Assembly: GCA_964187785.1 (NCBI GenBank)
Contig: OZ076409.1
Coordinates: 3,102,001-3,166,000, forward strand
Origin: Amphiscolops sp. MND2022
Lineage: Eukaryota
Direction of reading: 5' to 3'
DNA length: 64,000 bases
The notes beneath the pieces are model-generated. The model had not been told where the DNA came from and made no database searches. It saw only the letters and a program-made list of their open reading frames with translations. The first letter of the stretch is position 1. The number at the start of each line of letters is the position of its first letter. A program made the position numbers and the translations under genes. Positions 39,401-64,000 of this stretch are shown here, piece after piece.

Positions 39401-42200
39401 TTGGCGCGTGCAGTTACAGTGGCTTCAGAAGCGTAAACGATAGACAATTCACGTCGCAGAGTAGGATCACGATTTCCTTCTATAAAGCACTTCAGGATTT
39501 CATAACGTTTGGTAGTGATAGGCTCAAACCCTTCCAAGGCATCCAAATTTTGCATCCAGTCATCTTTCTCTAACTGGTAACGGGAAATGAAGGCCTGCCG
39601 CACTTGCATGCGGTTACCTCCAGTATTGAACCGGCTTGCCATTAATTCGAATACTTTCTCTGGCGTGTCACGTTCGGACTCTGCCTTGTTGATGATATAA
39701 TTCCGCTCCTCACCTTCCAGAAGACCAATGATATTCCAAGATTTGTCTTCAGGAGTTGCTTTGACTTCAGTGCGCTGCAAATACCGGCGCAATACCAATA
39801 TTCATCCATCGATAGAGCCTTCTTTAGACCAACGTTACATAGTGGGCCTGGCCTGCGTTGGATCACGACCAGCGAGAAGAGGAGCGATTTCCTTGGACAT
39901 CGCTCTAAATATTGCCGTGGTAAACCGCAATTGTTTAGGGGAGATGTCATTGCCATCCTCACTGCACGCAGGTGAACTGTCCCTGCTTCCCTTGGTGGCC
40001 TGAAGAGATAAGTCCCCCACCAAACGTTTTTTACGGGTGCAACTAGCATAATGGTTGCCCGCGGACATCCCCTCACCAACAGTTGTGTACAAAGAGCTCT
40101 CCTCAGTCACATGTGCACTGCACGAGCAGTGTCGAAGTTATCATCTTCCACACTATTGGCGTGAGATCTAGCGATAGCTTTGATGTCAGTGAAGTCTAAG
40201 GAAGATGAATTCAAGGTTATTGGATTCCCTCCCAAGTCCTGGGTACGTGTCACCAGAATTGTCTGCGAGGGCAGTAGCATGGCACGTGACGTGCTAGGTT
40301 TACATATAACTTGTATCCGCGCAAGTCTCTTGGTTACCTTTGGCGGTTTGGGGGCTTTGATTACAGTTTTAGCGCCCAGTTTCAGCGTCAGAGGACGACC
40401 AGTGGTAAGCGGGCATCACCTTAATATCAGTGTCTCTTCTAGCCGCCGCACTCATCGCATTGATCCGGTCTTGAGCTCGGTTACTTGTACCTCCATGCGC
40501 AACTCACGTTGAAGTAGTAACCATTTCATCTCATGCAACCGGTAACCCATAGCGTCCACTTTCGCAGACTGCACGGTTTGCTGTTGGTTAGTAGCACGCC
40601 TGCTGTCTTTCACGGAACACTGTACTGCCTCAATTTCGAGGGCGACTGCCCTGTGCTGTTCGCCGCACACCGCACGGGTTTCAGCTAGTCGTGGTAATTG
40701 TCGTTTTGCCACCGTCTCAGCCTCTAACACGGCTGTCCTTTCTGCCGCAGCCTCCTCCACGGCTCGATAAGCCGAAGATGGTCGTGAAGAAGCTACGGAG
40801 GTGGCACCGTCCCGAACCGAGGGCGCATTTTCATCTTGCACGCACAATTTTGGTGGTCGCAAGCGATACCTGGCATAATTCATACCACCAACGTAATAAG
40901 TCATACTTTCTAATATGGCATCAGTGTCGTTGCTGCCTGGACTACTGGCCTCATCGGGTGCTCTCGAGCACCCTTAAGCTTCTCTTTCAGCAGTTACATT
41001 AGGGTTGGGCCAGAAGTCTTCGGAGCTGGCACGAAGTGACAAAGTTAGTCTGCCGGCGTATCCTGAGTCCACTGCTAAGTACGAATTCACTCGTCATTGC
41101 TCCTCTTTCCTTTGCTGTTCGGTAGTCACCCGATCAGACATTGCACCTGAAAAACGGGAACCAGTCTTTAACGACTTCGGAGACCGCCGCTTCTGCAGAT
41201 TCAAGTTGCCATTGCTACCGGAACTTTCACGTTGCACCGAGCTCAATTAACATATTTCGTTAGCTTCTACCGCTTCCGGCGTCACAGATTCAGTCAATGT
41301 CGTGTTGCCATCAGAACGTTGATACAGTACTTGCCCATAACATTTTGCAGGCTTTACTGCGTGCCCAACACGTCAATCACATAAGTGACGACCACAAATG
41401 GTACTGACAAGCTCAAATCAGCGTCACGGGTGCCACTTCTAGCGCAGCACTTGATCAGCAAATCACCAATCCGTGCTCGCAGGCACGCTTGAAACCGTTT
41501 AGGACTATCGCTAAGACTGACAGAGACCTCAGATGGTTGGGAGTCGTTTCTGTGAGACCTTAAGACACAAACTTAATATACATGTCTCAAATGGATTGAA
41601 TTTACTTCTACGGGTCGTAGCGAACTCAAACTCACTCACGCAATCGTTACCAACCCACAAAATTGGAAAATTAACTTAATTCAAAGCCACACTTTTACTC
41701 AGACAAGCTCGAGACGTTTTTGACAACTTTTGAATTTTCTCGGATGGTATAAAAAACACATGTGGCTCGTATTTGCCACCAAATAGTCGGATCTGGCTCA
41801 AAAGTGACCAGGTACCCTGCGCCCTCGCAGGTACACTGAACTGAGCACCAATTTGGGCTACGAGGCTTGTACACCATTTCACCCAGACGGTACAGACCTA
41901 CGGTACCCCTATGTATCCGTAGGAGGCGAATTGCACTCTCATCATGCAATTCCCAAGTACCGTTATGAGCTAGTGGTCTGGTTTTTTTCAGCAACGATGC
42001 GTCAACCAGCACAAGGTACAACGGTGGGCTGCAAGTCGTCTCCACTTTTTGGCGGAGGTGTTCAAGTACTTCCAAAAAAATTCGCGAAATACGCCTTTTT
42101 GCACCTCTTTTTGTGCGGTCTGTTTTTGTCAATTTCTGAACAAATGCTGCACTAATTGGCACCAACTTTACTAGGCGGTGCTAGTGGGCACCCACACTGT
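36228..42200 (-). mobile_element. Decayed Ty3/Gypsy sequence: gag, protease, RT and integrase remnants with frameshifts and an internal deletion
   Basis: Gag-like 39337-40904; protease-like 38398-38805; RT 37455-37784 (WASGIVMV, DAYPLPRID, SIDLAWAFWQI); YIDD fused directly to the integrase tail (GLVEQTIQSLK..PFESHFGR). Right boundary approximate. Confidence 0.8.
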
Positions 42201-45200: not shown

Positions 45201-45253
45201 TTCAATTTTAATTTATTTGTTTTCTATGCAATTGTCTAACTTGCAAAACGCCA

Positions 45254-47551
45254 TGTCGAGCCCCACTGTGTGGGCCGGCTTTGAAGGACCTTTCGAAGTT
45301 GATGGCCGATTTTCACTGTCTGTCTTACTTATAACGGCCATCATTAAGTCCTTCAGTTGACTAAACTCATTTTGTAACTCGTTTATCTTTCTTTCATAAC
45401 TCTCTTTTATTTCAGACAACTGAGACGAGATGTCAGAAGTTTCGTTACTATCGGAGTCATTGGCAGATGACTGGGCCATGTCTGGATTAATTGGAATAGA
45501 TGTTTCAGACGAAGAACTAATAATTTTACCACTTCTGAGCTCAGTACCTTGTTCTGGATTCATATAGACGAGGGAAAAGGATTATGAGTGAAGACTGGAT
45601 TATCTGAAATGTTATTGCGATGTATTTTGCTGTTCTATTCGATTTGTAATCCCTAATTCACTAAATTTGATCAGAGATGTTTTAACGATGATTAGTATAA
45701 ATGAACAAGTCGTAAAGAAAGTAGCAGGAAATTAGTAAGGTGAATAGGAAAGTTCATCCAATGTTCATCGCAGTTGTAAGTGTGTCAAAAGAGATTACTC
45801 AGTTTTTCAGTATTATAGTTTCTGAAGATGAAAATGAGATGTCTTTTCAAGTAAAATTCGACGTGAGGTGTTCAACTGGATTGTAGCTTGTCGCAATTTC
45901 GGTCTGAGTAATCGCTAATGGCGGTCCAAAATACAGCAGTTCACGTGTCTTTTCATGCTGGTAAGACGCTAAATCTCTTACCAGCCGACTCTTATTGGCT
46001 ATTGCCAGTTGGTGCTAATTGGTAAGTCACGTGACCGGTGTTGTGAACTGCCGCAAGTTGGCCAAACCACATGGTACATCTACATATGCTAATTATGACT
46101 AATCATCACTTTACAATGTCGCAATTACCTGCACGCAGCATCTTGGTTTCTATAGCAACTCAAATCATTCAATAATGTACTAATTTCAAGTCAAACCAGA
46201 GTAAACTGTATCACAGGATGGGAAAACGATGTTTTCCAACTAATTCCAGCACTAAAATCAATACTTCAAAACTAAAGATGGAAATGCGATGAATTTGTCA
46301 GAGTATTTGCTGATTTTCAAGCCTAGTTTAGCTCTGGATGAAAATGCGATGAATGGTGGTCCTTTCGCTCGAAAATCAACACGATATAAACTGACGATGA
46401 TAAAAGGATGAACTCGTCTTCAAAATGAACGATTTCCAGCACAATTTAAATCGACGATGGTAAAAGGATGAACTCTCCTCGAAAATAACTAATTTCCAGC
46501 ACTAGTGAAATTGACGATGAATTCAGGATGAATTCGGTCGATAAAACAGGTGAAGCAGTTAATTCTACAGTAAAGACAAATGTACGATGAGCTTAGGATG
46601 AATACATTCAATAAAACAGCAAAATCAAATGTATCAAATTCCAATGATGAGTTTAGGATGAACTCGTGAATTAAAACAGCAACTATCGAAGCAATTCAAA
46701 CTAGCGATGAGTTTAGGATGAACTCATCCACTAAAATGGTAAATCTCAACACAAGATGAAATCATGATGAATTAATGATGGATTTGCTAAACAAATCAGA
46801 TAACCAGCGCAATCACTCTTTTTTAGGATGGGTTAAGGATGTACTTTCTCATTTCTCTTCTATGCTAGTATGACGATGAATAAAGGATGTCTTACTGTCC
46901 TTAAGAAATGAGAAGCACATTTGTGAGTTTCTACATGAAATATGACGATGAATTAGTGATGAGTTTTACTAAAATGAGTCCCGTAAAATCCGCTGATGGA
47001 TTTATGATGAAAGGTAAAGTTTATTGTCCCATGCGTGGTTCATTCGCAATCTCGGAGATGGGATTGCGATGAACTTAATTAACAGCACCAGTAAATCCGC
47101 TGATGGATTTAAATGAAATCAAATCAGTATCATCACTAAATTAGACGATGAATTTGTGATGTATCTTTGATGAGATTTGTCACAACTACAAACTCTGAGG
47201 CGGGGAGCTAGTAGAAGTTATAACTTTCATCGTTTCTATATCTCGCGGTCCAGTCTGACCAGAAAACTTCTCTCCCTTGTCGTGACAAACCAATATTTAA
47301 GAAAAGTAGCACGTCTAAGGCTAATGGCAAGATCATTTATGCGGACACCGGAACTAGAGCGCTCAGTATTAAGTAGATATATATAAATCACACTCAAAGG
47401 GGGGAAGGGATTAAGGTACAAGTAACGTAGGGTTGCTCACAACCATGGCTCTTATTATATGACTTCATATTGCCCATATCTAAGTACATAAGACATAATA
47501 TTTACATCACAGATATTTAGTAGATTATATTTCCATCATGCTGGCATGACA
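45254..47551 (-). repeat. 3' LTR (~2298 bp)
   Basis: Left edge fixed by comparison with the other copy (TGTCGAG). Right edge inferred from the TGTC...GACA terminal inverted repeat at 47548-47551; not confirmable within the window. Confidence 0.8.
46217..47172 (+). repeat. Phased array of GATG-N7-GATG motifs (~16 units, period mostly ~60 bp, variable spacers) in the LTR
   Basis: First GATG at 46217, 46277, 46337, 46396, 46456, 46516, 46586, 46646, 46706, 46766, 46827, 46875, 46947, 46995, 47057, 47147. Duplicated in the 5' LTR from 63254. Confidence 0.92.
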
Positions 47552-48686
47552 CTCCCGGGGGTGGGATTTGGACTGAGAGTGCAGGGGCCAAATGTGCAGA
47601 GGATGGTTGTCTCGGCGTTGGCTTCGACTGTTTCCTTCGTTTTGTTGGGGAGAAAATGGCCTTCGTTAGTTCTGAACTGGCATGTCCTTCGTTTGTTCTG
47701 TCCTGTGAGAGCTTCTCTGAGAAGAGGACCTTCGGTAATCGTCTTTTTCTGGCATCATTCTGGGTGATTTCGGTTAAAATTTTCGACGCGGCAACTCTAA
47801 TTCTTGGTCCATCGAATGTCCGCTGATCTGCATTTTATTGGTTGTCATGCTTTTGACGGGAGTTTCGGCTGGTTATTTTCGGTAGAAGCTGATTTCTCGG
47901 AGAAAAGTTTCCCTCCAAAACGCCTACGCTGAATAAACAATTCGATTAGCTTCATTGACAAATTGGCAGCGAGTCGGGGATGAATGAACGATGAATTGTT
48001 TGCTCAGCGAGACATCGATGCTGGTTTAGCGGAATGGCTGGCGCCATTGCTTTGTTTACTCGCGATGGAAAGGAGATGAATCGTCGTCATAGCAACTGTC
48101 AAAAGTTACTCCCGCTGCTCGACTTTTGAGTGAATGAGAAAGAGATGAATTCGTCGCCATAGCAACTGTTGCTCGATCTGATTGGCCGAGACTGAATTTA
48201 TGACTGAAGGAAATTACAACCGGTTGTCAGCAGCATTCTCATCCATAAATCATCCTCCATTCAAGTCGGTTTGAAAATCGCCACGATTTCCTTTGCGCGT
48301 TTCCGCTCAACTTCGTCGGCATTGATCTGAGACTGGCAGCTGTCAACAAATCAAATACTTGAAGTTTTTTGTCAAGTCCTTAGGAGGGGACGATTCATTT
48401 TCAGGGAAAGCTTGAGTTGGCTGTACTGGGAAGAAAAGTGATGTCAGTATTTGAAATCGGAGAGTTTTTCATCGATTTTTCATCTTCTGAATTCAAGTAT
48501 TTGATTAACATGGCATTCAAGCTGCGTCGCGCTCTTTGAAATCTTCTATTGAATTTGTTCTTTTGTAATCATGGTTGATCAGGCCATTTAATTACTGATC
48601 AAATTCTCTGTTCCTGGATTCTTCGATTTCTTTCCTTCTTTCACCTTCTTCCATTCTTTTCAGATTGTTTCTGCAATTTCTTCACG

Positions 48687-50141
48687 ATGTCGGATATCAA
48701 CTCCGTCTATTCGTTACCGGAGACCGAGGCCACAGAAAGTAAGTGCACTATTTTTCTCTTCTTCACAAACGGGTCGGGGAATAATTAGGAACTGAAGGCG
48801 TGTCTTGGTTTTAGCGGACTCCGTTCACTCTGTCGGCATCATTTCCGAGCTGACTACATTGCAGACAGTTCCGCCTCAAGAGGCTCCAATCCATGCAGCA
48901 TCTCACGCACCTCAGTATCAACCCGAGCAGCAAATTGAACAGGCCCCTAACGTCCCGTATCTTCCGCAGTGTAAGTACTATCCTTCCATTCTTCAGTTCA
49001 GTCTTCGAATCCCTCATATCTCATCCTTACTTCGTCCAGCGCGACTCCTTTTCGTACGGTGTTTCAGACCACTACCCTTGGTATGCCTCCCTCGGCAGCA
49101 TCACCTTCGGGTGGTATGACCGCCACATGCGGGACATGCTGCGGGACAGCATCCAGCAGTTCAGTGAGTTTGTCAATTTCCTTTTCACTCCTCTAGGCTA
49201 TCGTCCGAACACTCCGATGTGATTCCAATGTAAACATCTCATCTGCATGTAGTGTCCTTTGCAGCCGATTACCCATGTAATTCATTTTTAAGATGAATTT
49301 AGGATGTGTCATGAACATTCACAGCTCTTCATGGCTGACTCGCTGTAAATCCCATTTTTGAAGATGAGTTTTGGATGAATTCTTCTCCGGTCTTCTTTCT
49401 TCGCGCGGCGTACGCGCTCTTTCTTCTCCAATCGTCGTCGTCCAGTAACTGTTTCTTCTTTCAGGCCCCACACCGATCCACGCGCCAAGGCCTCGTCCAA
49501 TCAGCTACTCCGTCGGAGTAGGGACGAGTGATTTCGTCACAGCTAGTGCTGATGCTAGCACTCAAGGAGGGCCCCCTCCACTAGAGTTGTCCTCTTTCCT
49601 TCAGGACCTGTCACTAGGTGCAGTGAGTTCTCCTGTGATGAGGGCTTCCGCCTCCGTCCTCTCGCCGAACTTCCATCGGTACCTCGACGCTAGTGCCTCT
49701 CCCAGAAGTCCTCCTCCTCCACCTCGCGTCACAGTTGACACAGCTGCAAATGCCGTTGTTGATTGCATAGATGCAGCCGTTGATGCCTGTGTGGATACTG
49801 CGGACAAGGAGGTCCAAGCCGTTATTGAGACTGCTGATGGTTCCACTTGTTATGAACCCCAGGTGGAGACTTCCCTGTCTGCTTCTCCTCCTCCACCGAT
49901 TGCTGGTGTTCCAGGGGCAGTTGACGTTGACGTTGACCCGTCCGAAGTTCCCTCAGCTGGCACCACCGAGACCCAACTGGAAATCCCTGGCGATCTCTCA
50001 TTTCATAGTCCTTCATCTGGCGTGTCTGCTCCAGGAAGTATTGCGTCCAATGTGGCTACTGCCGACCTCGAGACGTCTCCAATGGGACCCAGCCTGTTGG
50101 ACTCCGATGACGAGCCCATTGCATCTCGTCTGCCAGGTTAA
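48687..50141 (+). CDS. Accessory gene A (antisense to gag-pol): ~326-aa Pro/Ser/Asp-rich, probably disordered protein; exons 48687-48738, 48815-48970, 49068-49163, 49465-50141
   Basis: Donors GTAAGT, GTAAGT, GTGAGT; acceptors TTTTAG, TTTCAG, TTTCAG; all phase 1. The 981 nt join into one open frame from MSDINSVYSLPE to ...IASRLPG*. Confidence 0.7.
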
Positions 50142-50724
50142 CTAAACAGCTTTAAACCGGTGAAGTATCTGATCAGTAGATTTTCATTCGTTTCCTTCTT
50201 CGTTTTTACTTTCGCTAGCATTTTTCACGTTTTTCTCTTTTCTATCCATTTTCCATCGTTTTTCTGTTTTCACTATATGGTTTTCTGCAGTTTTTCATTT
50301 TTCATCATTTTCTCATCGTCAAAAGTTTTGAACAATAGTTTTTTCGCTCTCTGGTCCTTTTTTAGAACTTTTCATCTCTTTTACATCTTTAAAATTTCTC
50401 GTTTCGGTTTTCGCTATCTTTCAGTGTTTTCTTTTCAGTTTACATCTCTTTTTCATCGTTAAGTTGTTTTTCGCTCTAAAATATCTCAAATTTGGTTCAA
50501 AGTCGTTCTATTCATCTCTTTTTCATCGTTCGAGGCTATCATTCTTTAAGGTTTCCATTTTTCATTCTGGTGGTCTGCAAACACATCTCTTTTTCATCTT
50601 TTCATTTTTTCTTCGTTTTTCGCTTGTATTTCCGATGAAAATATTGTTTTACATCATTTTTTCATCACTCGGGGTGAACTTTTTGATTTTTACGTTTTAC
50701 CTTTGCATTTTTCGGTTTTTGAGG

Positions 50725-53384
50725 ATGTTCATAAGATGTGGTATGTTGCTGTGTGCTTTTCGATGGTGTTTGATATGTATGCTGTTGTGTTAAAACAGGG
50801 CGGAAACGGATCGCTCGGAGCTGGTTCAATCACGTGTACTGTGGCTTAGCTATTGGATACGCGAAATATCATCAGTCCCGTGAATCTTATGTGAGGTGCT
50901 TGTTGTGCAAGCGGGACATAAAGGTTGCAAGTCGTGGCATCACGACTTTTATGGAACATTGTCGGGGCGTCCAACATCACCGCCTCGATTGTCTGGTTCG
51001 GCTTAGACGCGGGCTAGCATTGCGGGATCGTGACGGCAATCTGATGTCAGTGTCGGACAGTGTGGCTCAATCAGCTTTGTTGGAAGGAGTGAGTGTGCCT
51101 ATTGTTGAGCGTTGTCCAGATGTTACTCCAGCAGAAGTTTTCCAGATGGAACTCGCAGAGAAACCTGTCTGGGAAGATCTAGAACAGGACGAATCGGAAG
51201 GCCAGGAACGTACTGTGCGGCTGTTCCTGTGTCTGGTGATTGATGCTCTATACCGGGACTGTGACCTGCTAAGTGTATGTGGATTATGGGAGCTAATGGT
51301 GGCGACCGATGCGCAGCACTTGACCATGTTTGGACGGAGGTGTCGACTGGATGATATTGTGGTAACTATATTTCTATTTCATTAGTTGTAACTAGTGGCG
51401 AATGGGCGGCAAATATAAGATTGACTTGTGTGGTTTGCATATGTTCCTGAGTTTGCAGATTTGATTTTTGTACAGTATTACATTTGTGTTTTAGGGCGTG
51501 ATCATTTTGGGTTTGTGGCCCTTCGTCATGCGGCGTCTGATTGCTTTGTGGAGTGAGTCGACGTTCAGTAGCTTCTCCATTGGCATCGTGGCGGACAGGG
51601 TCGTTGGGCGCGTGAGCATGTGTAGTTCAGAAGGGGTCTCGCAGTATATCCTGTTTTCCTTTAGCTACACGCAGGATTGGGAGCCACGATTAGTTTCATG
51701 GATTGTGAACCTGCTTTGTGGTGCTCTGAGTGAGATCTGTCCCCTAGGCCTAAATTGTGAGCTGTTCCCGCAGTTATATCGTGTCTTGTGCTCAAGTGCC
51801 GGAATTGGGACGATTAGCTTAGTACCCGTTCGACTGGCTGACATCAATCGACTTATAGTGGCTGCGAGCGCGAGAGTTCTTGGGGGCACCGACGTGCATG
51901 TCATCCTTAATCACTTGCAGTCTAGACTGAAGCCCTATGTGAAAGATGACCTGTTGTTGTCCTGTCCCAAACTGTTGCGGGTGAGTATCATAGAGCTTTG
52001 TTTTATCGAAGTTTATGGTTGTAATGGACTCGCTATGTATTATGTTTTGTGGGGGGGGGGGTTGGTATCTTTCCGTTAATAAAACTGTTTTAACTTGTGA
52101 TTTGTTTTTATAGTCGGTCTTAGAAGGCGAGGTGTCTTTGTGGGACGTGCCTGACGTTCTCTCTGAATTGCGTGAGAAGTGGCCTTTCATTTGCGGTTTA
52201 CTGAGGACACCTGATGACGAGGGAGATGTTGATCCGCTAGACTATGTGCTCTGTGGTGATCCTGGCGTCGCGATGCGGCTTCATGTCTTGAGTCTTGTTC
52301 TCCGTGCTCGTGAGTATTCTTGTATTATTTATTTCGTGTGTTTGGTTCGGGCGGCTAAGTCAGTATTGTGTGCAGGGGGGTTGGATTGGTTTGCAAGTAG
52401 GGTGTGAAACGTGTGCACAATTCTTATTCGCTTTTTGTTGTTTCAGTAGTGACTGCGTACCAGTGGAGTTTCAGCGACAGTGCAATTCGCGGGTGTCACT
52501 GGGCATATGAGAGCGCATGTTTTGTACGAGCCCTGTTGGTCTATGTGGTGGACGAGTCGGTCTTACCTCCAGTGACAGATGTACGTGCTTTTCTGAGCTT
52601 GGTTGTGTCTGGATTGGAGTTGAGTGGACCCAAATTAGAGTGGTTGCGGGGGCGGTTTGCAGTACACTCCGACGACTATGCAAATCTAGCCCAGTTCGAA
52701 GAGGATTTAGTGCGAGTGCGGAATTTCTTGCTTGCGGTCGTTGACGAAGTGCTCAATGTGAAGGGACTGAAGGATGAGGTGACATTCCACCTCAGTATCT
52801 GTTGTCCGGTCATTCTAGCAGAGGCAGAGACAGAACTTGTGGTTCAGGAGGCAAGCCGTTTCACGGAGTTACTTCTGGACCTCAAGCGAATCACGTCAGC
52901 TGAGCGGAGACGGATGGATCGCGACATGCCGAACTTTGTGGCCAAGTATCGCAGTCTTGTGAGCCCTGAAGTATTAGCTACGGCTGGTACTGAGATCGAC
53001 CTGTTCCGGGCGTGTGCTAGTGAATCGTCAGTTCGCTTCCTTCGATTCCTATTATGCTTGTGTGAAAGTCCGCAGTTTCCGTTGGAAACGAAATGTGTGC
53101 AAGTGGGTCACATGTCTAGTGATGTGACCAGCAGTGTGTGCGCTACGGTCGTCAGTTACTTGAAGGCACATCGAATACGCTTGTACGAGAGTGTTGAAGG
53201 GCCGCTATTGGATGAAGTCTCAGAAGCAGTTGGGCGTATCACGGATCTGTCAGATTTCACGGAGGAGCTCCTATGGGATGACATTGGCATCGTCGCGAAT
53301 GAAGATTACCGGCGTCATATCTATGAACAGTTAGGATATGAAGTGGATGGAGAGCGAGCAATGAGCCCAGAGATCGGCAATTAA
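50725..53384 (+). CDS. Accessory gene B (antisense to gag-pol): ~732-aa protein with N-terminal C2H2/BED-like zinc finger; exons 50725-50740, 50799-51361, 51495-51980, 52114-52309, 52447-53384
   Basis: Donors GTATGT, GTAACT, GTGAGT, GTGAGT with matching AG acceptors; phases 1,0,0,1. The 2199-nt open frame links four separately called ORFs. Motif CLLCKRDIKVASRGITTFMEHCRGVQHH. The first micro-exon is the least certain part. Confidence 0.8.
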
Positions 53385-56001
53385 CTTTGAATGTTGCAAA
53401 CTCAGTTGATTTAGATTTTGTATTATTTGTATTATTGTTTTTGTAGTATTAGTTCTTTAATGGATTACCAACATTGGGTACGGCCTCTGGATAGAGAGGG
53501 GAGAGAGAGAGAAAATTCTGCTACGTCGGAAAGATCGGTAGTAGTGTATTTACAACAATAGTTATTTTGGTGCCCAATATCTGTTTTTCTTTTGAGTTGT
53601 TAGTGATAGTTACAGAGGATATTAAGTACGTGTAAATCAACAAGTTCGTCCAACAGTTCACTTGAAGCATTGTCATCGGTATTTTTGTATCCTAGATCAT
53701 CGGTCGCGCATCGCTTTTTTGGTGTTCATCGTTATTACATCTCGTGGGAGTGTAAGTAATTCGTCAGCGTTTGATTTTTGATTTCTCATCTCATTTTCAT
53801 CACGTTTTCCTCGGTCGACCGTGCGACGTCGTGGAACCTGATTTTGTCATCGTTTTTACATCTTTCGGTGCGTCAGAAACATTGCATGTTGTTACATGTG
53901 GTTTTTCTACATATTTCATCATTTTTTCATCTTGCGTTTTGATTTCAGCACTTTCGTGCGTTATTTGCTATAGTTCATCGTTTTTGCATCGCCAGTTTGT
54001 CTTGTCCAGTTTTTGCTCATTTTGCTGTATAGTTCATCTTCTTTTCATCGTGCGTTTGAAATGTACGAATTTTGCGTGTTTTCGATGTTATTTGGCTATA
54101 ACGTAAGCAGGGGTTGCATTTTTCATGTCTGGGGGAAATTTTTATTAATATTGCGGTGTTTCGGAGTGTTTTCTTCATGTATTTTAGCGTTATACGGTTA
54201 TAACCGTTTGTCGTGTTTTTGAATTTGCATGAATTTTATGGTACATGTGTTTTGATCATCGTCGTCATGTTTCTAGTTTGTCAACTACGGAACGTCATTG
54301 CATGTATTTTTAGTTCGAATTCTGGTGACCGCCGCTTGCGTGGCAGTCGAAAATAATTTCACTCAGCAGTGGTACTGATAGCCTGTAGGCGTGCAAGGTA
54401 CTAGTGGCTTCAGTCCAAGGCTGGGTGAGTGGAGCTGCTCCGCTCCTTTCAGATGAATGGAATCTCGTAGTTTTGGGCTATATATAGTCTATATGTCATT
54501 TTTGCGGTTGGTTGTTTGCCATTATTCGTCGAAATGGGTTTGTCCATTTGACGGTCAGTCCGCTCAATTAATATGATTGACAACTACGGTTATGCATGTG
54601 TCCAGTTTTAGACTATCTGTTTCTTGTATTTGCATGTATGGATTGTTACATGATGTGTTCCTTTAAATGGGTTGCCCCATTATTGACATGTCGTTATATG
54701 TTCGGTGTTAGTTTCATGTGTTTTGATTTGATATTTTTATTTTCGTTCATTTGGACAGGGCTTTGTCGTCACAAAGCCCCTACAAAACTAACTGAGAATC
54801 CACTAGCCGCTGGATAACCAACGCAGCAAGCTTCATCCGAATATGGTTGTGAGCTCCCCGCCTCAACTAACCAGCACTCTTTTCAGAGAAATGCCAGCCA
54901 GCACGAAGGAATGTTTTGAGCTTTTCGATAGGGGTGTTTTGTATGTTATGAGCTGATGTTTACTGGGGGGTGCTCACTCCTTTGTTAGTTTTGTAGGTGT
55001 TTCGTCAGTTCTTATATTTTGCATGTAAGTTAGTAGGCTTCATGTATTTTCGATTGTTTGTTTCATTTTTATTCGTCTAGGTTTGGAATGCTTTGGTGTG
55101 AATTGCATATATTATCTCATTCATTTTTGAACGGTACATGTATATTTCGGTGCGTTGCTCATTTGTATTGCATGTAGTTTGGAATTGTTAATTTCTTTCG
55201 TGACGTCATTGATTTGGCAGGTCTTTGAACTTTACATGTATTGATCATTTCATTTTTGTGTCGCATAATTCTGTTTGCATGATTCGAAATAAAGTCGGTT
55301 GTTTTTTATCGTTTCGTGGAGTTACATGTTGTTTGAGAATTGGCTGATTTATTGTGATGTTATGTTGATGGTGTTTCCCATCACAAGGAGGTTTTGGTAA
55401 GTCATTTAATATTTTCGAATTTCCATTTAGACTAAATTCATCGTTTTGACATCCTCCAGCGAAGCTAGAGTATTGTGTAAGGTTAACGATAAATTCGGTC
55501 ACGATTTGATGGTAGTGCCCATCACAAATTCATCTCGTTAATTGATTTCATGTAATTTATGAATAATTGGATCTAGTTCATCACTATTTCATCCTCTAGC
55601 CGAGCTAGAGTCTTATGATAGCATGAACGTGAGTGCGTTCGCATTCTGATGGTATTTTCCATCTCGAATGCATCGCTAGTAAATATTGCATGTTGATTGG
55701 TCGAATTTTTGGCTGAGTTCATCACTTTTTCATCTCTCGTGTGTCTGAGCTAAATTTTCAAGTGGTTTTATCCTTTTTTCATTTCGAATTTTTGTGTGTT
55801 ATTTTTTCCTGGTTTTTTGGTCGTTTTTCATCCGCTTTACATCGTGCTTTGTTTTTATACGTTTTTCATGTGATTTTTAGTAACTTTTCATCCATTTTAC
55901 ATCTTCATGTGTTTTTTAAGTTAAAATTGCATGTAATTCGTTCGCTTTTGTGATCTGTTCATCCGTAACACATCTCAAATTTAAAATGAGAGTTTTCTTG
56001 G

Positions 56002-59000
56002 CTAAATCGTTACGTCTATTTTGTTGGTCTTTCTCAGTGCGTTTCTAGCTGAAGTAATCTCATGAATGAGGAAGTCTGGATACTTTTTCGGTGTAGGGTT
56101 CTCACGTAACCTGTACCTACTTTGATTTGATCTAGACGGTCTAGAACTCATCCTTTCTTCATCTTCATTTTGCGTGTTTGTCTGTTGTGACTGATTTTCG
56201 TGTTGTTCGTCTCTCAGAGGTACTCTTATCCTACTCTCATCGCGGGGAGGCGGTAGAATAATTTCTTCTCGCGTTCCAAATCTAACTGTAGGTGGTCTAA
56301 AGTTGTTGTGGTCAGTTTCTACTTGCTGATAGTCTATTCTCGTGGTTATTTCTGGTGGAATTACTTGTGGAGTGTGTTGTTCTTGTACCCGCGGAATTAT
56401 TTCTTCTGAAGGCTCTTCTTCGACTAAGTCTTGATCTAGATTGTCATTCTCATTCTGATCTACCTCGTCGGTCGTCGGAATATTCGAGTCGAAAATGTCC
56501 GTGTCTTCAACCCTTTCGGTGTCTGGGTAGAGATGTTTGGACACGTTGATGTCGTCAATCGGAAATTCCGGTTTGAACAATCTCAGTCGCATGCGATGTA
56601 CGCACTGAGTTTGGTGTGTGCCTACTTTGCGGATGATGTAGTTGCTATCGGATAGCACTTTAATCACCTTGTACGGTCCTTTCCAATGGAAAGTTTTAAA
56701 CTCTTCTTTGCTTCTCTGAGAGTCGTACTTAGGATCTAGTAGGAACACAAATTCATTCACCTTCAGTGGCTGTGCTCGTGCTTTTCTATCATAGTACGTT
56801 TTGTACTTGTGATAGGCGGAAATGATGTTATCTAGATTGTCTCTGAAGATAAAATTCATTTTGTCTAGAATTTCGTTCACGTCCTTACACTTTGTTTCAG
56901 CCGGTTTGTTTGCGTTTCGGAATTGCAGATCTAGTGAGTTGTATGGTGTTCTTCCGTGGAAAGTTTCAGTTGGTGAACATTTCAGTGAATCATGATACGT
57001 TGTGTTATGGGCCATGATTGCTATGTCGACATAGCGGTCCCATTGTGGTCTGTCTGCGTTTACACTAATTTTAAGGATCTTTTTCAGTTTCGCGTGCGTT
57101 CTCTCCACCATGCCTATTGTCTGCGCGTGCTTTATCGTGGCATGGGAGATGTGAATATCAGCCGCTTTCGCGATTTCAGACAGAAGTTCAGCCGTGAACG
57201 CCGTGCCCTTGTCCGTCAGAATGTGTTTGGGCACATACGCGTGTTTTGTGAAGATCGACAGTAATCCTCTGACTACGGAATGTGTATCAGGTCTCTTCAG
57301 CGGAACGGCGAACAGGTAGCGCGAGAAAACGTCAACAGCCGTCAGAATGTGTGTAAAACCGTTCGATGCCGGGAGTGGACCAACGATGTCTATTTCCAAC
57401 AGGTCTTCTGGTCCGTCGCACGGGTCGTAGATTTTTTGTAACGGTGGACGTAGTTGCGTTTCTTTTACACTTTTAGACTTCATGCAGTTTTCACATCCGT
57501 CAAGGACTTTTTGAACTTTACAGGCTAAGTTGGGAGAGTAATATCTTTTACGAAGTTCATACAACATTTTCTTTAAACCAGGGTGTCCTTGTACCGGGCT
57601 GTTATGTAGAGTCCTAATTATTTTCAAAATACAGTCTTCAGGAACGACTAACTGCTTGTGAGACTCTAGTCCCGTGTGATCAAAAAACTGTCTGTACAAG
57701 ACACCGTTTACAACTTGTAGGCGTTTTCGATTTTTGTACAACTTTTGAAAAAACTGGTCTTGCATATTAACTGGGTGTTGCAAAATTTCAGTACCTTCTA
57801 AAAATCTAATCATTTTTTGGATAACCCAGTTATTTTTCTGGACTTGAATTAGATCGATCCCCTCGGCGGGGCTAACCTGACTCCTTACCGGGTGTGATAA
57901 TGATACTTTACGGATGAATTGCGAGAGTTGAATTGGCTCGTCCACGTCTGTGAGGCGGTACGTCAGATGGTTGTCAGTCGCGAAGTCATCTGAGGCCGCT
58001 GTTCTCTCACAGTTGGTGAACTTCATCCCTTTCCCATCGTCATGAGCCACGTCAGTGCCAGTTGCCAATTTCATCTCTTTGACATCCTTCTGGCGTTTGC
58101 ATCTGAGTGGTTCGCTCGCGGGAAAGTAATCAGGCTCGTCTTCCTCCTGTTTTGGTGTACGGGAGGCGATGTCGATCTCGATTCTGTGAATTGGAATAGT
58201 ATCAGTCAATTTTAAATGTACACGGTCTTCAGGTCTAATCTCAAGCCGAGATAAGTAATCCGCTGCGGGATTTTCAACTCCTGGAACATGTGCTAATAGA
58301 AAATTGAACTGAAGGGTTTGATCGCAAAAATTCCAAAGTGATGGCGGGATATGCTTCGCCTGGAAAAATCTAGTCAAGGCCTTATTGTCAGTCATAACAA
58401 TGATGGGTTTTTTCGCACCCCACAAAATGTGGCCAAATTCATCGAAGGCAAAGTGCATAGCTAAAAACTCTTTGGCATACATTGTTAGAGACATCTGGCC
58501 GCCCTGAATTTTCTTAGAGCCAAATGCAACAGGGGCGTATGTATGTTTGACTGACGGGTCTGCATAATCCTCGATTAACAACACATAGCCGGCAGCGTGT
58601 TCGCTGGCGTCACACATGATTACCAATTGTTTATCTGGTAATGGCAATTTCAGAGACACTTTTGTTGCTTTTAACAAACTTTCATTAATTTCAAAAATAG
58701 CATCTTTATGTTGTTGGTTCAGCTTGAAAGGGACGTCTTTCTTGATGAGTTCTTGTAAACAACAAGTTTTATCAGCTAGACGGGGAATATAAGACCTGTA
58801 AAAGTTTACAAAACCAAGATAACGTTGCAACGCTTTCACTGAATTAGGGGGTTTCAACTTGGTTAAATAGTCTGTTACGCGTTTTTCGATGGGAGCAATA
58901 CCAGTGCTAGAAATGGTTTTTCCCAAGTACTCAATTTGTTTTTGTCCAAATTCACATTTACTCATGCTAAGTTTAAGACCAGCTTTGTGCAATTGTTGAA

Positions 59001-61095
59001 AAACAAGTTCAAGGTTAGTAATCAATTCTTCGGGTGAGTGTGCTGCAATTCCAATATCGTCAACATATTGGGCACAGCGGTCCGCTTTGACCAAGGGGTC
59101 CAAATACTCACGGATTACTCCTGTGAATGCTGACAAAGAACGATTAAGACCTTGTGCTAGACGTAAAAATGCAAAAGTTCTAGACCCAAAATTAAACGAT
59201 AACAGTTGGACAGATTGCTCATCGGCCATTGGAATGCAATGGTAGGCCTGGGAACAATCAAGTTTGCAGAAGTACTTTTTCCCGGCCATGTGTTGGGCAG
59301 CGTCAGCAATTGTTGTTACGGGATGATTGTGCTCACCGTAATCGTTTTTGATCAGGTGGTTTATTCTTCTCAAGTCAACTAAAATCCTCAATTTACCATT
59401 AGGTTTACGCTGAGCAAATATCGGGGAAGAGTATTTGCTGTGAGGCAAAGTAGTTATAATCCCGTACTCTTGCATTAGAGCTAACTCCACGAGCAAATCG
59501 TCCTTCAAATTTGTCGGAGTCGGGAGACTTTGTGAATAAACAGGTTCTTCATGTTGAGGTGTTAACTTAACTTTAAAATCAGTGTTCATGCCAATATCAA
59601 AACGATGTCTAGCAAAAATGGAGTTGTACTTTACCAGCAACTCCTTTACCTGTAACCGTTGAGACGGAGTAAGAAGCGAGTCGTCCCAGTTGAAGTTCTT
59701 CAGGAAGTTCATCCGTTGTTCATCGGATTGGGACGGGTCAAGCTTCTCGAGCTCTCGCAGTGCCAGAATCTCATCATAAATCCGTCGCTCAATTGCGTTG
59801 AGTTTGTCTGGCTCACTGCACGTCTCGGGAGTTGGGTACCACTTGGTTGACTTCATTTCAGGGTTCACGAACAGTTGGTTGATCACTGCTTCGGCTTCAT
59901 CTGGGTACTTGGTGATCAAGTTCAAGTGTTCCACTGGCATGGGCGTGATGTTTGCCGCCTGGTGTGGTGTCGGGATGCGAAAGTGTGCCAGAGTGGTATT
60001 GGCTTCAAGTGTGTACGTGTGGTTGTTTGGGTTGGTGACCTGGATTGTCGTCTTGCCCTCGTCTAGGTCAACCAAAGCTGGAGAAACAAGCAAACACGTC
60101 TTTCGCATGAATCCAGGTGAGCCCTCAACTGTACCAGTTGTAAGTGAGATGTCCTCGTCACTGTGGACCTGTATCATCACTTGATGGAGAGGAGGGATCA
60201 CTGTTCTAGTACTGGAACACAAATCAATTAAACCAGTTTTGAATCTGTTGTTCTTTTGCTGTCTAACTTGCATGGACATCATGTGATTAGGGAAGTGGAC
60301 AAGGTGGTTTTTGATGTCTAAGTTGACTGAGTACTTTTCAAAAAAGGACATTCCAATTAAAATTGTTCCCATTGTTGGAAGGATTAGGAACGTTTCTTCA
60401 AATACTTTTCCAGCAACGCAAAATCTAAGTAAGACTTGCTTACGCACTGGGACTAAGTTCCCGTTTGCTATTTGAATTTTGAAATTCGGAGGGGGGAATT
60501 CTTGAAGGATGGCTTCTGGATGAGCCGTTGTTATTTTTCGCAATTCGGCTCCAGACATTGCACTTTGTATTGCGCCTGTGTCTAAAAGTGCGCTGTTTTC
60601 GTATTTGTCAAACTGAAGAGGGACGTAAAGCATTTTATCTTTTTTGTTTAAATGTAAAGTGGGACTGAGAACGTGAATTTCTGTTTTAGTTGCATGTTTT
60701 TTAGCTTTTGAAGCGTTAATACTACTCTGTTTTGCATGTTTTTTAATACTAAGCCGTTTGTCGATTGTTGAGTGTGAAGTCGAGTCGTCGTCTAGATGGT
60801 GGGTTTCCATCTCTTTGGCATCTTCCACCTGCCTCATGGTGTTTGGTTGCCAGTTCATCGTTTGTTCATCGTTGATTTCAGCGAGTGAAGAAAAGCGGCT
60901 GCCGTTGAGTTGACGTGCATTTCTCATCGCTTTTTCATCGTTGGAAAGTCTTCGCTGATAGACGTCGTCAGCTTTTGGTCGTTTGTCCAGTGAAGGCTGC
61001 CATTTCTTCATTGGACGGTTGTGAGTCTGTTGTTGAGTCGTCAGTCGTTTGTCGCGCGTGTCGTTGGTAGCGGACGGAAATCGTGGCGGAATCAA
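56002..61095 (-). CDS. pol: Pol polyprotein (protease, RT, RNase H, integrase), probably expressed as Gag-Pol by -1 frameshift
   Basis: 1697-codon ORF: LLDTGA (PR), YVDD (RT), CDAS/TDNKAL (RNase H), H-x6-H..CENC zinc motif, DIVGP/TDKG/ERTH catalytic triad, WKGPY (GPY/F motif). Confidence 0.97.
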   Translation of the reverse strand: MIPPRFPSATNDTRDKRLTTQQQTHNRPMKKWQPSLDKRPKADDVYQRRLSNDEKAMRNARQLNGSRFSSLAEINDEQTMNWQPNTMRQVEDAKEMETHHLDDDSTSHSTIDKRLSIKKHAKQSSINASKAKKHATKTEIHVLSPTLHLNKKDKMLYVPLQFDKYENSALLDTGAIQSAMSGAELRKITTAHPEAILQEFPPPNFKIQIANGNLVPVRKQVLLRFCVAGKVFEETFLILPTMGTILIGMSFFEKYSVNLDIKNHLVHFPNHMMSMQVRQQKNNRFKTGLIDLCSSTRTVIPPLHQVMIQVHSDEDISLTTGTVEGSPGFMRKTCLLVSPALVDLDEGKTTIQVTNPNNHTYTLEANTTLAHFRIPTPHQAANITPMPVEHLNLITKYPDEAEAVINQLFVNPEMKSTKWYPTPETCSEPDKLNAIERRIYDEILALRELEKLDPSQSDEQRMNFLKNFNWDDSLLTPSQRLQVKELLVKYNSIFARHRFDIGMNTDFKVKLTPQHEEPVYSQSLPTPTNLKDDLLVELALMQEYGIITTLPHSKYSSPIFAQRKPNGKLRILVDLRRINHLIKNDYGEHNHPVTTIADAAQHMAGKKYFCKLDCSQAYHCIPMADEQSVQLLSFNFGSRTFAFLRLAQGLNRSLSAFTGVIREYLDPLVKADRCAQYVDDIGIAAHSPEELITNLELVFQQLHKAGLKLSMSKCEFGQKQIEYLGKTISSTGIAPIEKRVTDYLTKLKPPNSVKALQRYLGFVNFYRSYIPRLADKTCCLQELIKKDVPFKLNQQHKDAIFEINESLLKATKVSLKLPLPDKQLVIMCDASEHAAGYVLLIEDYADPSVKHTYAPVAFGSKKIQGGQMSLTMYAKEFLAMHFAFDEFGHILWGAKKPIIVMTDNKALTRFFQAKHIPPSLWNFCDQTLQFNFLLAHVPGVENPAADYLSRLEIRPEDRVHLKLTDTIPIHRIEIDIASRTPKQEEDEPDYFPASEPLRCKRQKDVKEMKLATGTDVAHDDGKGMKFTNCERTAASDDFATDNHLTYRLTDVDEPIQLSQFIRKVSLSHPVRSQVSPAEGIDLIQVQKNNWVIQKMIRFLEGTEILQHPVNMQDQFFQKLYKNRKRLQVVNGVLYRQFFDHTGLESHKQLVVPEDCILKIIRTLHNSPVQGHPGLKKMLYELRKRYYSPNLACKVQKVLDGCENCMKSKSVKETQLRPPLQKIYDPCDGPEDLLEIDIVGPLPASNGFTHILTAVDVFSRYLFAVPLKRPDTHSVVRGLLSIFTKHAYVPKHILTDKGTAFTAELLSEIAKAADIHISHATIKHAQTIGMVERTHAKLKKILKISVNADRPQWDRYVDIAIMAHNTTYHDSLKCSPTETFHGRTPYNSLDLQFRNANKPAETKCKDVNEILDKMNFIFRDNLDNIISAYHKYKTYYDRKARAQPLKVNEFVFLLDPKYDSQRSKEEFKTFHWKGPYKVIKVLSDSNYIIRKVGTHQTQCVHRMRLRLFKPEFPIDDINVSKHLYPDTERVEDTDIFDSNIPTTDEVDQNENDNLDQDLVEEEPSEEIIPRVQEQHTPQVIPPEITTRIDYQQVETDHNNFRPPTVRFGTREEIILPPPRDESRIRVPLRDEQHENQSQQTNTQNEDEERMSSRPSRSNQSRYRLRENPTPKKYPDFLIHEITSARNALRKTNKIDVTI

Positions 61096-62600
61096 AAACC
61101 CTGATTTATGTCTTCATCAGAGTAGCTTTCTTGGTCTTCTTCTTCGGCAACTGCTTGCATAGGGTTCATCGGCTTTTGTTGTCGTTTTAAATCTTGTCTT
61201 CTAGTTTTGTTGTCATCTTGTGAATTCGTTGCGTATGGAATCTTTCCATATGCAGAACTGCTTTCTTTAGGGACGCGTCGTCTGCAACCCCTTGCTGAGT
61301 GGCCTGTGTAACCGCAAATCTGGCAGACCAATTTTGGATTGTATTTCGGCTTATCTGGATCGGCTGCTTTCTTCATTGGGATTGCATCCTCCTTCTTTAT
61401 GCCGTTCGCTTCGTCTCGTTGTCGGGCGCGACATTCCGTTTTGCGGTGTCCTGTCTTTCCGCAGTAGAAACATTGTCCCTCAAATCGTTTTCGTTCTGTC
61501 GGTTGCGTGGTCGTCGTTGTTGTTGTGGGCTTCGTCGTTGTAATCGTAGGTGGTGCTGAGGAGGTGACCGCGTTAAATGGTTGGATTGCCGTAGGTGGCG
61601 CGACGTACTGCTGGTACTGGTATTTTCGCATTAGGTAGGTTTTGATTTCCTCTGGGGAGCTCTCTTCTTTGTTTGCCATAGTGAGCTCTTGTTGAATCTC
61701 GACTGGCAGTTTTCCAAACAAGAACATTTTGATTATTCTGTCGGCCTCATTGCCGAAGGCTTGTTTGGCAGTCTTCTTGAGATTTTTGAGGAAATCTCCG
61801 AATGTTTCTGTTGTGGGATCATAGCGTGCTTGGTCCCATTTGTAACGGGCCACTTCCTTTAGATCCTCTTTTGCAAATTCTTTTCTGAAGAGGTCGAGTA
61901 CATCCTTTAGTGTTGTCATTGGCGTTATCTGGATGGATTGCCAGTATTCTATTGCGTCATCTCTCAAAAGGCTTTGAAAGAAGTGTAGTTTGTTCTCCTC
62001 GGTGATTTTGTTGGCAAGCGGGCTAAGGTGGTTGAGGAGAAGGTGCTCAAATTCGACGAATTTGTCTTTTTGGCCTCTGAAATTTGGCACGTGTGTCTGC
62101 AGAAGCTTCGTGTTGGTGGTTGTGTTTTTGATCCGTTGGGGGATCGTCTCGATTGCATAGAGTAGTCGTTCCTCATTGCTTCTGGGGGTTGATTCTCCCT
62201 CTTCGTCTGAATCGTCTTCTTGGTAACTTCTGAAGTTGGTGAAGCTGGTTGTCGGGCGGGTGGAGCGGGTTTCTGTAGCTCCTGTCACCATGTCGAGCCC
62301 CACTGTGTGGGCCGGCTTTGAAGGACCTTTCGAAGTTGATGGCCGATTTTCACTGTCTGTCTTACTTATAACGGCCATCATTAAGTCCTTCAGTTGACTA
62401 AACTCATTTTGTAACTCGTTTATCTTTCTTTCATAACTCTCTTTTATTTCAGACAACTGAGACGAGATGTCAGAAGTTTCGTTACTATCGGAGTCATTGG
62501 CAGATGACTGGGCCATGTCTGGATTAATTGGAATAGATGTTTCAGACGAAGAACTAATAATTTTACCACTTCTGAGCTCAGTACCTTGTTCTGGATTCAT
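61092..62600 (-). CDS. gag: Gag (502 aa) with two CCHC zinc knuckles; starts inside the 5' LTR
   Basis: CFYCGKTGHRKTEC and CQICGYTGHSARGC; capsid-like central region; N-terminal coiled-coil; directly upstream of pol. Confidence 0.93.
   Translation of the reverse strand: MNPEQGTELRSGKIISSSSETSIPINPDMAQSSANDSDSNETSDISSQLSEIKESYERKINELQNEFSQLKDLMMAVISKTDSENRPSTSKGPSKPAHTVGLDMVTGATETRSTRPTTSFTNFRSYQEDDSDEEGESTPRSNEERLLYAIETIPQRIKNTTTNTKLLQTHVPNFRGQKDKFVEFEHLLLNHLSPLANKITEENKLHFFQSLLRDDAIEYWQSIQITPMTTLKDVLDLFRKEFAKEDLKEVARYKWDQARYDPTTETFGDFLKNLKKTAKQAFGNEADRIIKMFLFGKLPVEIQQELTMANKEESSPEEIKTYLMRKYQYQQYVAPPTAIQPFNAVTSSAPPTITTTKPTTTTTTTQPTERKRFEGQCFYCGKTGHRKTECRARQRDEANGIKKEDAIPMKKAADPDKPKYNPKLVCQICGYTGHSARGCRRRVPKESSSAYGKIPYATNSQDDNKTRRQDLKRQQKPMNPMQAVAEEEDQESYSDEDINQGF
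61095..61101 (-). other. -1 ribosomal frameshift slippery heptamer G GGU UUU
   Basis: Gag ends CAG GGT TTT TGA. The -1 frame reads GGG TTT TTG ATT CCG into pol and is closed by TGA TGA four codons upstream. Confidence 0.8.
62279..62290 (-). other. Primer binding site TGGTGACAGGAG
   Basis: Begins with TGG immediately after the terminal CA of the 5' LTR. Primer tRNA not determined. Confidence 0.75.
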
Positions 62601-64000
62601 ATAGACGAGGGAAAAGGATTATGAGTGAAGACTGGATTATCTGAAATGTTATTGCGATGTATTTTGCTGTTCTATTCGATTTGTAATCCCTAATTCACTA
62701 AATTTGAACAGAGATGTTTTAACGATGATTAGTATAAATGAACAAGTCGTAAAGAAAGTAGCAGGAAATTAGTAAGGTGAATAGGAAAGTTCATCCAATG
62801 TTCATCGCAGTTGTAAGTGTGTCAAAAGAGATTACTCAGTTTTTCAGTATTATAGTTTCTGAAGATGAAAATGAGATGTCTTTTCAAGTAAAATTCGACG
62901 TGAGGTGTTCAACTGGATTGTAGCTTGTCGCAATTTCGGTCTGAGTAATCGCTAATGGCGGTCCAAAATACAGCAGTTCACGTGTCTTTTCAGGCTGGTA
63001 AGACGCTAAATCTCTTACCAGCCGACTCTTATTGGCTATTGCCAGTTGGTGCTAATTGGTAAGTCACGTGACCGGTGTTGTGAACTGCCGCAAGTTGGCC
63101 AAACCACATGGTACATCTACATATGCTAATTATGACTAATCATCACTTTACAATGTCGCAATTACCTGCACGCAGCATCATGGTTTCTATAGCAACTCAA
63201 ATCATTCAATAATGTACTAATTTCAAGTCAAACCAGAGTAAACTGTATCACAGGATGGGAAAACGATGTTTTCCAACTAATTCCAGCACTAAAATCAATA
63301 CTTCAAAACTAAAGATGGAAATGCGATGAATTTGTCAGAGTATTTGCTGATTTTCAAGCCTAGTTTAGCTCTGGATGAAAATGCGATGAATGGTGGTCTT
63401 TTCGCTCGAAAATCAACACGATATAAACTGACGATGATAAAAGGATGAACTCGTCTTCAAAATGAACGATTTCCAGCACAATTTAAATCGACGATGGTAA
63501 AAGGATGAACTCTCCTCGAAAATAACTAATTTCCAGCACTAGTGAAATTGACGATGAATTCAGGATGAATTCGGTCGATAAAACAGGTGAAGCAGTTAAT
63601 TCTACAGTAAAGACAAATGTACGATGAGCTTAGGATGAATACATTCAATAAAACAGCAAAATCAAATGTATCAAATTCCAATGATGAGTTTAGGATGAAC
63701 TCGTGAATTAAAACAGCAACTATCGAAGCAATTCAAACTAGCGATGAGTTTAGGATGAACTCATCCACTAAAATGGTAAATCTCAACACAAGATGAAATC
63801 ATGATGAATTAATGATGGATTTGCTAAACAAATCAGATAACCAGCGCAATCACTCTTTTTTAGGATGGGTTAAGGATGTACTTTCTCATTTCTCTTCTAT
63901 GCTAGTATGACGATGAATAAAGGATGTCTTACTGTCCTTAAGAAATGAGAAGCACATTTGTGAGTTTCTACATGAAATATGACGATGAATTAGTGATGAG
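62291..64000 (-). repeat. 5' LTR (partial; truncated by the window end)
   Basis: Near-identical to 45254-46963. Confidence 0.95.

Follow-up and report, generated by a model that had tools for sequence, protein, structure and literature searches.

A probable eight-exon antisense accessory gene in a Ty3/gypsy-type retrotransposon of Amphiscolops sp. MND2022

In the retrovirus HTLV-1 (human T-cell leukaemia virus type 1), the promoter of the antisense gene HBZ lies in the 3′ long terminal repeat (LTR), and brtn, an antisense gene of Boty-like Ty3/gypsy elements in Botrytis cinerea, was reportedly described by Zhao et al. in Virology in 2011. According to the main text of the papers concerned, plant Ty3/gypsy elements of the Tat/Retand/Grande/RIRE2 type carry an antisense gene between pol and the 3′ LTR, which is kept in most active copies and whose products contain TRP28 or PMD domains and have been proposed to play a DNA-binding or regulatory role (PMC11963269, PMC4408406, PMC7264820). 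The main text of one of them also presents HBZ and other retroviral antisense genes as spliced genes that encode nuclear regulators antisense at the 3′ end of the retroelement (PMC11963269). A stretch of 64,000 nucleotides from Amphiscolops sp. MND2022 (assembly GCA_964187785.1, contig OZ076409.1, positions 3,102,001 to 3,166,000 of the forward strand), hereafter the window, was analysed in this study, with a focus on positions 50725 to 53384. This flagged interval is probably the 3′ two thirds of a single plus-strand accessory gene of eight exons, which belongs to an animal Ty3/gypsy element and may act for it.

The original prediction had assigned to the interval a gene of its own ("gene B") with five exons and ~732 amino acids, in which four pieces called as separate open reading frames (ORFs) were joined through canonical splice sites, downstream of another ORF ("gene A"). 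We searched the exon-8 piece against the 1.07-Gb assembly and scored 127 of 1211 candidates, which fall into identity bands of 100-97%, 92-89%, 81-77%, 74-69%, and 52-50%; 110 of the 127 scored copies are free of stops in exon 8. Fourteen further copies were taken from the four lower bands and form, together with the window copy (WIN), the set of 15 copies compared below. The joins between the four pieces are borne out: ORFs 50774-51385, 51495-52079, 52114-52407, and 52401-53384 are present in the ORF list of the window, their junctions are 51361|GT..AG|51495, 51980|GT..AG|52114, and 52309|GT..AG|52447, and the boundaries and phases hold in the 14 other copies. The extent of the gene had to be revised, because in the best model it starts at 48687 and comprises eight exons and 1052 codons. 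The upstream ORF (49449-50141) ends with ...LLDSDDEPIASRLP-G in every subfamily, and it is there, at a CAG|GTTA, that similarity stops; the acceptor 50798/50799 fits this conserved donor (50136/50137) at the end of the gene A ORF. The codon split between exons 4 and 5 (G|GG, G|GT, or G|GA) encodes glycine in 15/15 copies, so that its variable base falls at a synonymous position. Beyond the donor there is no conserved stop, the frame ending at TAA in the window and staying open over varying lengths in other copies. Upstream, three small exons with phase-1 junctions lead from exon 4 back to the ATG at 48687. Genes A and B are therefore read here as most likely one plus-strand gene, a reading drawn from comparison of the copies. 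The joined model runs from ATG 48687 to the stop at 53384 (3159 nt, 1052 codons plus stop), all seven of its introns are GT..AG in the window copy, and it lies on the plus strand between pol and the 3′ LTR, tail-to-tail with pol. Its exons are as follows.

48687..48738, plus strand: exon 1, with the first ATG after an in-frame stop and the donor AAA|GTAAGT in phase 1; ATG and donor are conserved in the mapped copies
48815..48970, plus strand: exon 2 (DSVHSVG...NVPYLPQ)
49068..49163, plus strand: exon 3 (HYPWYASLGSITFGWYDRHMRDMLRDSIQQF)
49465..50136, plus strand: exon 4, the gene A ORF of the original prediction, ending ...LLDSDDEPIASRLP, with the donor CAG|GTTA in phase 1
50799..51361, plus strand: exon 5 (formerly exon 2), which starts G|GG-RKR and holds a BED-like finger
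51495..51980, plus strand: exon 6 (formerly exon 3)
52114..52309, plus strand: exon 7 (formerly exon 4)
52447..53384, plus strand: exon 8 (formerly exon 5), predicted to be all-helical and ending ...GERAMSPEIGN plus stop

The exon structure is conserved across widely diverged copies. In tblastn comparisons the four pieces lie end to end in 14/14 further copies, at 50-94% identity and with gaps of similar size, and GT, AG, and a pyrimidine tract occur at homologous places in these 14 copies, similarity breaking off precisely at the splice sites. ORFs from the databases that are related to exon 6 likewise lose similarity right after ...LLQ/LLR, where the next codon, GTx, is the donor. With the eight-exon model transferred to the other copies by homology alone, 204 of 210 splice-site dinucleotides across the 15 copies are canonical (five are mutated and one is unmapped), and all seven introns are canonical in 10/15 copies. 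In 5/15 copies (WIN, L025, L023, L017, and L015), which represent five diverged groups with one copy each, the joined frame runs open through 1040-1052 codons, a share that is biased upward by the choice of the set from matches with an open exon 8; the remaining 10 copies have at least one stop or frameshift or an insertion, or could be mapped only in part.

Ratios of nonsynonymous to synonymous divergence (dN/dS) between subfamilies are 0.07-0.18 per large exon in exons 5-8 for comparisons in which synonymous divergence (dS) is unsaturated, and 0.13-0.31 in exons 1-4, with dS in the antisense-gene comparisons ranging up to saturation. The comparison of dN/dS across element copies that the original prediction had proposed as a check gave values well below 1. 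These patterns indicate that the antisense gene is coding, contains introns, and is under purifying selection. Its introns are retained in all young copies (97-100% identical), which supports the earlier proposal that introns can survive retrotransposition in this orientation: they are copied into new insertions because they are antisense to the genomic RNA and so are not spliced from it.

A different reading keeps gene B as a separate gene of five exons and ~732 amino acids, starting at ATG 50725 and derived from a captured, catalytically dead hAT transposase. We consider this unlikely. The first mini-exon of that gene (50725..50740, plus strand, followed by an intron at 50741-50798) lies inside intron 4 of the eight-exon model and is not conserved. 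It is in phase in the window and in the ~90% group (ATG...G|GT, then G+GG), and the intron-4 ATG itself is conserved, with a purine at position -3 and a motif upstream: between 50560 and 50740, a block TTTTCATCACTCCGGG, followed ~60-100 nt later by AGGATG, is shared by all subfamilies amid an otherwise diverging intron. However, the equivalent ATG and donor produce a T|GA stop in the ~72% group and in L013 and L015, the frame does not fit in L014, and the ATG is in frame without splicing in the ~80% group.

The transposase ancestry was assessed against genuine hATs, which are abundant in this genome (150 scored matches of 2215 candidates for PF05699). Five same-genome transposases with intact ORFs of 578-690 codons served as the comparison set; Dimer_Tnp_hAT was found in 5/5 of them (E 2.6e-15 to 7.4e-15 or better), and 3/5 also matched zf-BED or DUF659. 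In contrast, neither Dimer_Tnp_hAT (PF05699) nor other hAT-related Pfam families matched any of 18 exon-8 relatives (0/18) or 25 exon-6 relatives (0/25) at E<=1. Profile comparison with the real hATs by hhalign gave probabilities of 0.06% for exon 6, 0.2% for exon 8, 0.6% for the full spliced protein, and 1.5% for exon 5, in which the sole aligned stretch paired the finger with the BED finger (E 0.033). The length, the N-terminal BED-like finger, and the helix, three strands, and helices of a low-confidence exon 6 model would fit a hAT layout. Nevertheless, exon 6 has a single Asp (in ADR) placed plausibly for the first strand, and this residue is Gly in the ~51% group; no inverted repeats bracket the gene, where just short, imperfect, and scattered pairs not beyond chance length were found. 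The hAT origin advanced in the original prediction is accordingly regarded as unsupported and unlikely (no hAT family in Pfam, hhalign at 1.5% or less, no terminal inverted repeats), and it is only the BED-like finger that weakly recalls hATs.

The encoded protein appears to consist of an acidic front part followed by a finger and a long back part. Residues 1-325 (exons 1-4), an acidic region with much Pro, Ser, Thr, Ala, and Gly, are probably disordered; exon 4 is Pro/Ser/Ala-rich and acidic. Exon 5 begins with RKR, and the finger with the C-x2-C...H-x5-H pattern reported earlier is present there.

50822..50992, plus strand: BED-like zinc finger, W-F...C-x2-C-x16-H-x5-HH, with Cys and His invariant in 8/8 aligned copies

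The ~640 residues of exons 5-8 beyond the finger are modelled as largely helical. Exons 4, 6, 7, and 8 had no Pfam match at E<=1, sequence profiles of the Protein Data Bank (PDB) returned nothing better than E 0.4, and Foldseek searches of the low-confidence models against PDB gave no match at E<=0.001. The ESM Atlas yielded no lead for exon 8 (score 0.75). Its HEAT/ARM-type leads for exon 6 scored 0.88-0.90 at low recognition, sharing fewer than 170 features, and are taken here as a lead only. The best 19-residue hydropathy window reaches 1.9 and contains two Arg, so there is no strong transmembrane segment and the earlier judgement that the protein is not env-like stands.

As the original prediction had proposed, the gene lies inside a retrotransposon and antisense to it, a complete LTR element being present on the opposite strand with the following parts.

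45254..47551, minus strand: 3′ LTR, 2298 bp, with TG...CA ends, from repeat alignment; the target-site duplication TGGCG adjoins it (minus-strand reading)
62291..64000, extended to 64588, minus strand: 5′ LTR, which crosses the window end; this second repeat copy was completed from the genome
after the 5′ LTR, minus strand: TGGTGACAGGAGC, primer-binding-site-like
61092..62618, minus strand: gag ORF, 508 codons stop to stop, with CCHC zinc knuckles (zf-CCHC, E 8.7e-5)
56002..61113, minus strand: pol ORF, 1703 codons, with protease, reverse transcriptase, RNase H, and integrase

The pol ORF matched the Pfam families RVT_1 (1.9e-23), RT_RNaseH (8.8e-16), rve (1.6e-13), and Integrase_H2C2 (2.9e-13). 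The direct repeats 45251-47552 and 62288-64589 are 99.74% identical over 2302 nt, with six differences, and the whole element, 19,335 bp from LTR to LTR, is flanked by the 5-bp target duplication TGGCG (minus-strand reading). It has LTRs with TG..CA ends, a short target duplication, a CCHC gag, and the order protease, reverse transcriptase, RNase H, integrase, all of which are features of Ty3/gypsy membership. The minus strand thus carries a young LTR retrotransposon of the Ty3/gypsy type, complete in its parts, in an animal host. That the host is an animal is also indicated by genome scans, which gave 43 matches to the nuclear-receptor zinc finger and 0 to the RuBisCO small subunit. Its gag frame begins within the LTR, the first ~110 codons (62291-62618) being duplicated in the 3′ LTR (45254-45581), and the gag N-terminus recurs as an ORF at 45213-45581.

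The gene and its carrier do not share one history. Across representative elements, identity to the window is 90-99% in pol and 80-95% in the spacer next to the 3′ LTR; over 50946-53446 it is 53-60% in L014 and L016, 64-80% in L017 and L023, and 91-95% in L025. Where the back part of the gene is as low as 53-60%, pol is still ~95-98% identical (94-99% along the nucleotide identity profile). Synonymous differences in pol are 0.141 between WIN and L014, 0.182 between WIN and L016, and 0.160 between WIN and L023, against ~0.8 in exons 5-8 between WIN and the ~51% group (L013, L015, and L016) and 0.60 between WIN and L023. For WIN and L025 the two agree (0.138 in pol against 0.171 in exons 5-8). 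The divergent block spans ~49600-54150, with its left edge inside exon 4 and its right edge ~0.7 kb past the stop, while exons 1-3 lie in the conserved backbone, and at least seven distinct cassette types occur among the 15 copies. Faster evolution of the gene does not explain this contrast, because synonymous sites are saturated while dN/dS is low; the pattern indicates that recombination between element lineages is the best explanation. A further observation concerns pol, whose longest frame in L014, L016, L017, L023, and L025 is only 604-1100 codons; the antisense gene is still open over 1045-1052 codons in L017, L023, and L025, copies from a sample biased toward an open exon 8, so that the contrast has no weight as evidence.

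The separate history of 49.6-54.1 kb could also be taken to mean that the retrotransposon hosts a second mobile element of independent origin, such as a DNA transposon, nested within it. This is highly improbable, as flanking inverted repeats did not exceed the length expected by chance, the divergent block has one of its edges within coding exon 4, exons 1-3 belong to the conserved backbone, and the order of parts is identical in all copies.

A repeated motif marks the non-coding parts of the same element. In the 18.7-kb part of the window occupied by the element there are 87 occurrences of the hexamer GATGAA/TTCATC, versus 39 in the other 45 kb; for the 7-mer CGATGAA the count is 30, where base composition predicts 2.4. 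The clusters lie in the LTR, in intron 4, and in the pol-proximal spacer, switch strand between the LTR and the internal regions, and are densest, within 45254-64000, at 46000-47200, 50000-51000, 53000-56000, and 63000-64000. These clusters may be protein-binding sites. A more far-reaching idea, which we hold to be doubtful, is that a type-specific factor binds the (C/G)GATGAA arrays of its own element and that ancient cassettes are shuffled onto a uniform gag-pol, like serotypes or incompatibility types among competing lineages. If true, the cassettes would be the diverged binding and effector parts of competing retrotransposon lineages in an animal genome.

The protein family extends beyond the copies close to the window. 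A HMMER search with exon 8 against 1.84 billion representatives gave 77 matches, all unnamed and <=367 amino acids long, and the ten clusters that were looked up all come from assemblies of the European Nucleotide Archive (ENA); the exon-6 profile gave 71 matches, which were ENA-only. Such database relatives correspond to single exons, the form in which a gene caller of prokaryote style would list them, and a word-based search found no proteins >546 amino acids that carry exon 8. The database search with pol returned unnamed matches only, and a metagenome scan gave one 34-residue match at chance level (L050). One database relative, P0025, is 25% identical to the window exon 8; a site in the same genome matches it at 100%, and it stands at the head of a second large clade that has sublineages of its own. 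A pol 69% identical to that of the window lies ~2.3 kb downstream of the P0025 site on the opposite strand, so that the gene is an old component of a wider element clade. Another relative, P0013, has nothing closer than 32% in this genome, and at least one other organism therefore probably carries the family. The layout with an antisense ORF between pol and the 3′ LTR is conserved across copies and lineages.

This breadth bears on whether the gene is merely a host gene that was passively transduced and is carried without a role for the element. Gene capture by LTR elements is documented in the main text of an earlier study (PMC11963269), which lends the idea some plausibility. However, the gene occupies the same position in every subfamily examined and also in the clade whose pol is just 69% identical, and purifying selection has acted on it while it was borne by the element, across a synonymous divergence that reaches saturation. 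Passive carriage is thus quite unlikely, and we favour an accessory gene that acts for the retrotransposon.

Transcription of such an accessory gene would start at a promoter within the 3′ LTR or the adjacent 1.1 kb. A TATATAAA-like box on the plus strand at 47375-47395 in the 3′ LTR, ~1.3 kb upstream of the antisense gene ATG, is a candidate antisense promoter. Seven introns would be spliced from the plus-strand transcript; antisense to the genomic RNA, they would stay in the transposition intermediate and be copied into every new insertion. The protein might be a nuclear DNA-binding factor working for the element, possibly in transcriptional control, counter-silencing, or targeting. The back part of the gene, which extends from the variable half of exon 4 to the end of exon 8 and ~0.7 kb further, would be exchanged as a cassette by recombination among elements with near-identical pol. 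No plus-strand AATAAA was found between the stop and 55288.

Several points weigh against this picture. In addition to the upward bias of the intact share mentioned above, the other donors are stronger than that of exon 4 (CAG|GTTAAC or GTTACC), and the TTTTCATCACTCCGGG plus AGGATG block in intron 4 could supply some subfamilies with an internal promoter and a start codon for a shortened product, or it may be another cis element instead. The finger matched zf-BED (PF02892) in 4/8 copies at E 0.0082-0.095, with 13.2 bits versus a cut-off of 20.6 and hence below threshold. The AlphaFold2 models are of low confidence, both for exon 8 (all-helical; predicted local distance difference test score, pLDDT, 53) and for exon 6 (helix, three strands, helices; pLDDT 44). 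A regulatory role is suggested by analogy only, with the plant Tat/Retand antisense genes and with HTLV HBZ.

Elsewhere in the window, an ORF at 20611-21528 (minus strand) matched glycosyltransferase family 2 (E 2.9e-8). The G+C content of the window is 35-49%, and the region at 38000-42000, upstream of the element, is G+C-rich (48-49%). An Rfam scan of the window gave no matches.

The hundreds of copies of this gene in one animal genome, from 100% to 25% identity, offer a natural series for asking what antisense genes do, and they represent a protein family without a named relative in the databases searched. The near-uniform pol versus the deeply diverged cassettes points to modular exchange and possibly to type specificity. 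There is also a consequence for annotation, as gene callers will split the gene into fragments (database ORFs <=367 amino acids) or file it as a host gene.

Among the described systems, brtn is similar in being an additional antisense gene of a Ty3/gypsy element; the gene reported here differs from it in encoding a very large multi-domain protein and in its animal host. HBZ has no sequence relation to it and is a small basic leucine zipper (bZIP) protein encoded with one intron, and the splicing described here is predicted from sequence. With hAT and ZBED proteins the likeness is an N-terminal BED-pattern finger with upstream aromatics and a comparable length of exons 5-8; unlike them, the protein has no catalytic core detectable by sequence profiles and no hAT dimerisation domain, and the locus has no terminal inverted repeats. 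The plant Tat/Retand elements share with this one an extra gene between pol and the 3′ LTR, antisense to gag-pol, and a long region from pol to the 3′ LTR. The differences are the animal host, a gene of 1052 codons with seven introns, and a product from another protein family, one that has a BED-like finger; Pfam gave no match to TRP28 (PF04195) or PMD at E<=1, and the word "intron" is absent from the main text of the study on plant antisense ORFs (PMC11963269). In the literature searched, no LTR retrotransposon of an animal was found to carry an antisense gene with several exons. The antisense-gene layout is thus already known in plants, fungi, and retroviruses, whereas the animal host, the length of 1052 codons, the seven introns, the protein family, and the cassette-like mosaicism are new as far as that literature and the database searches show.

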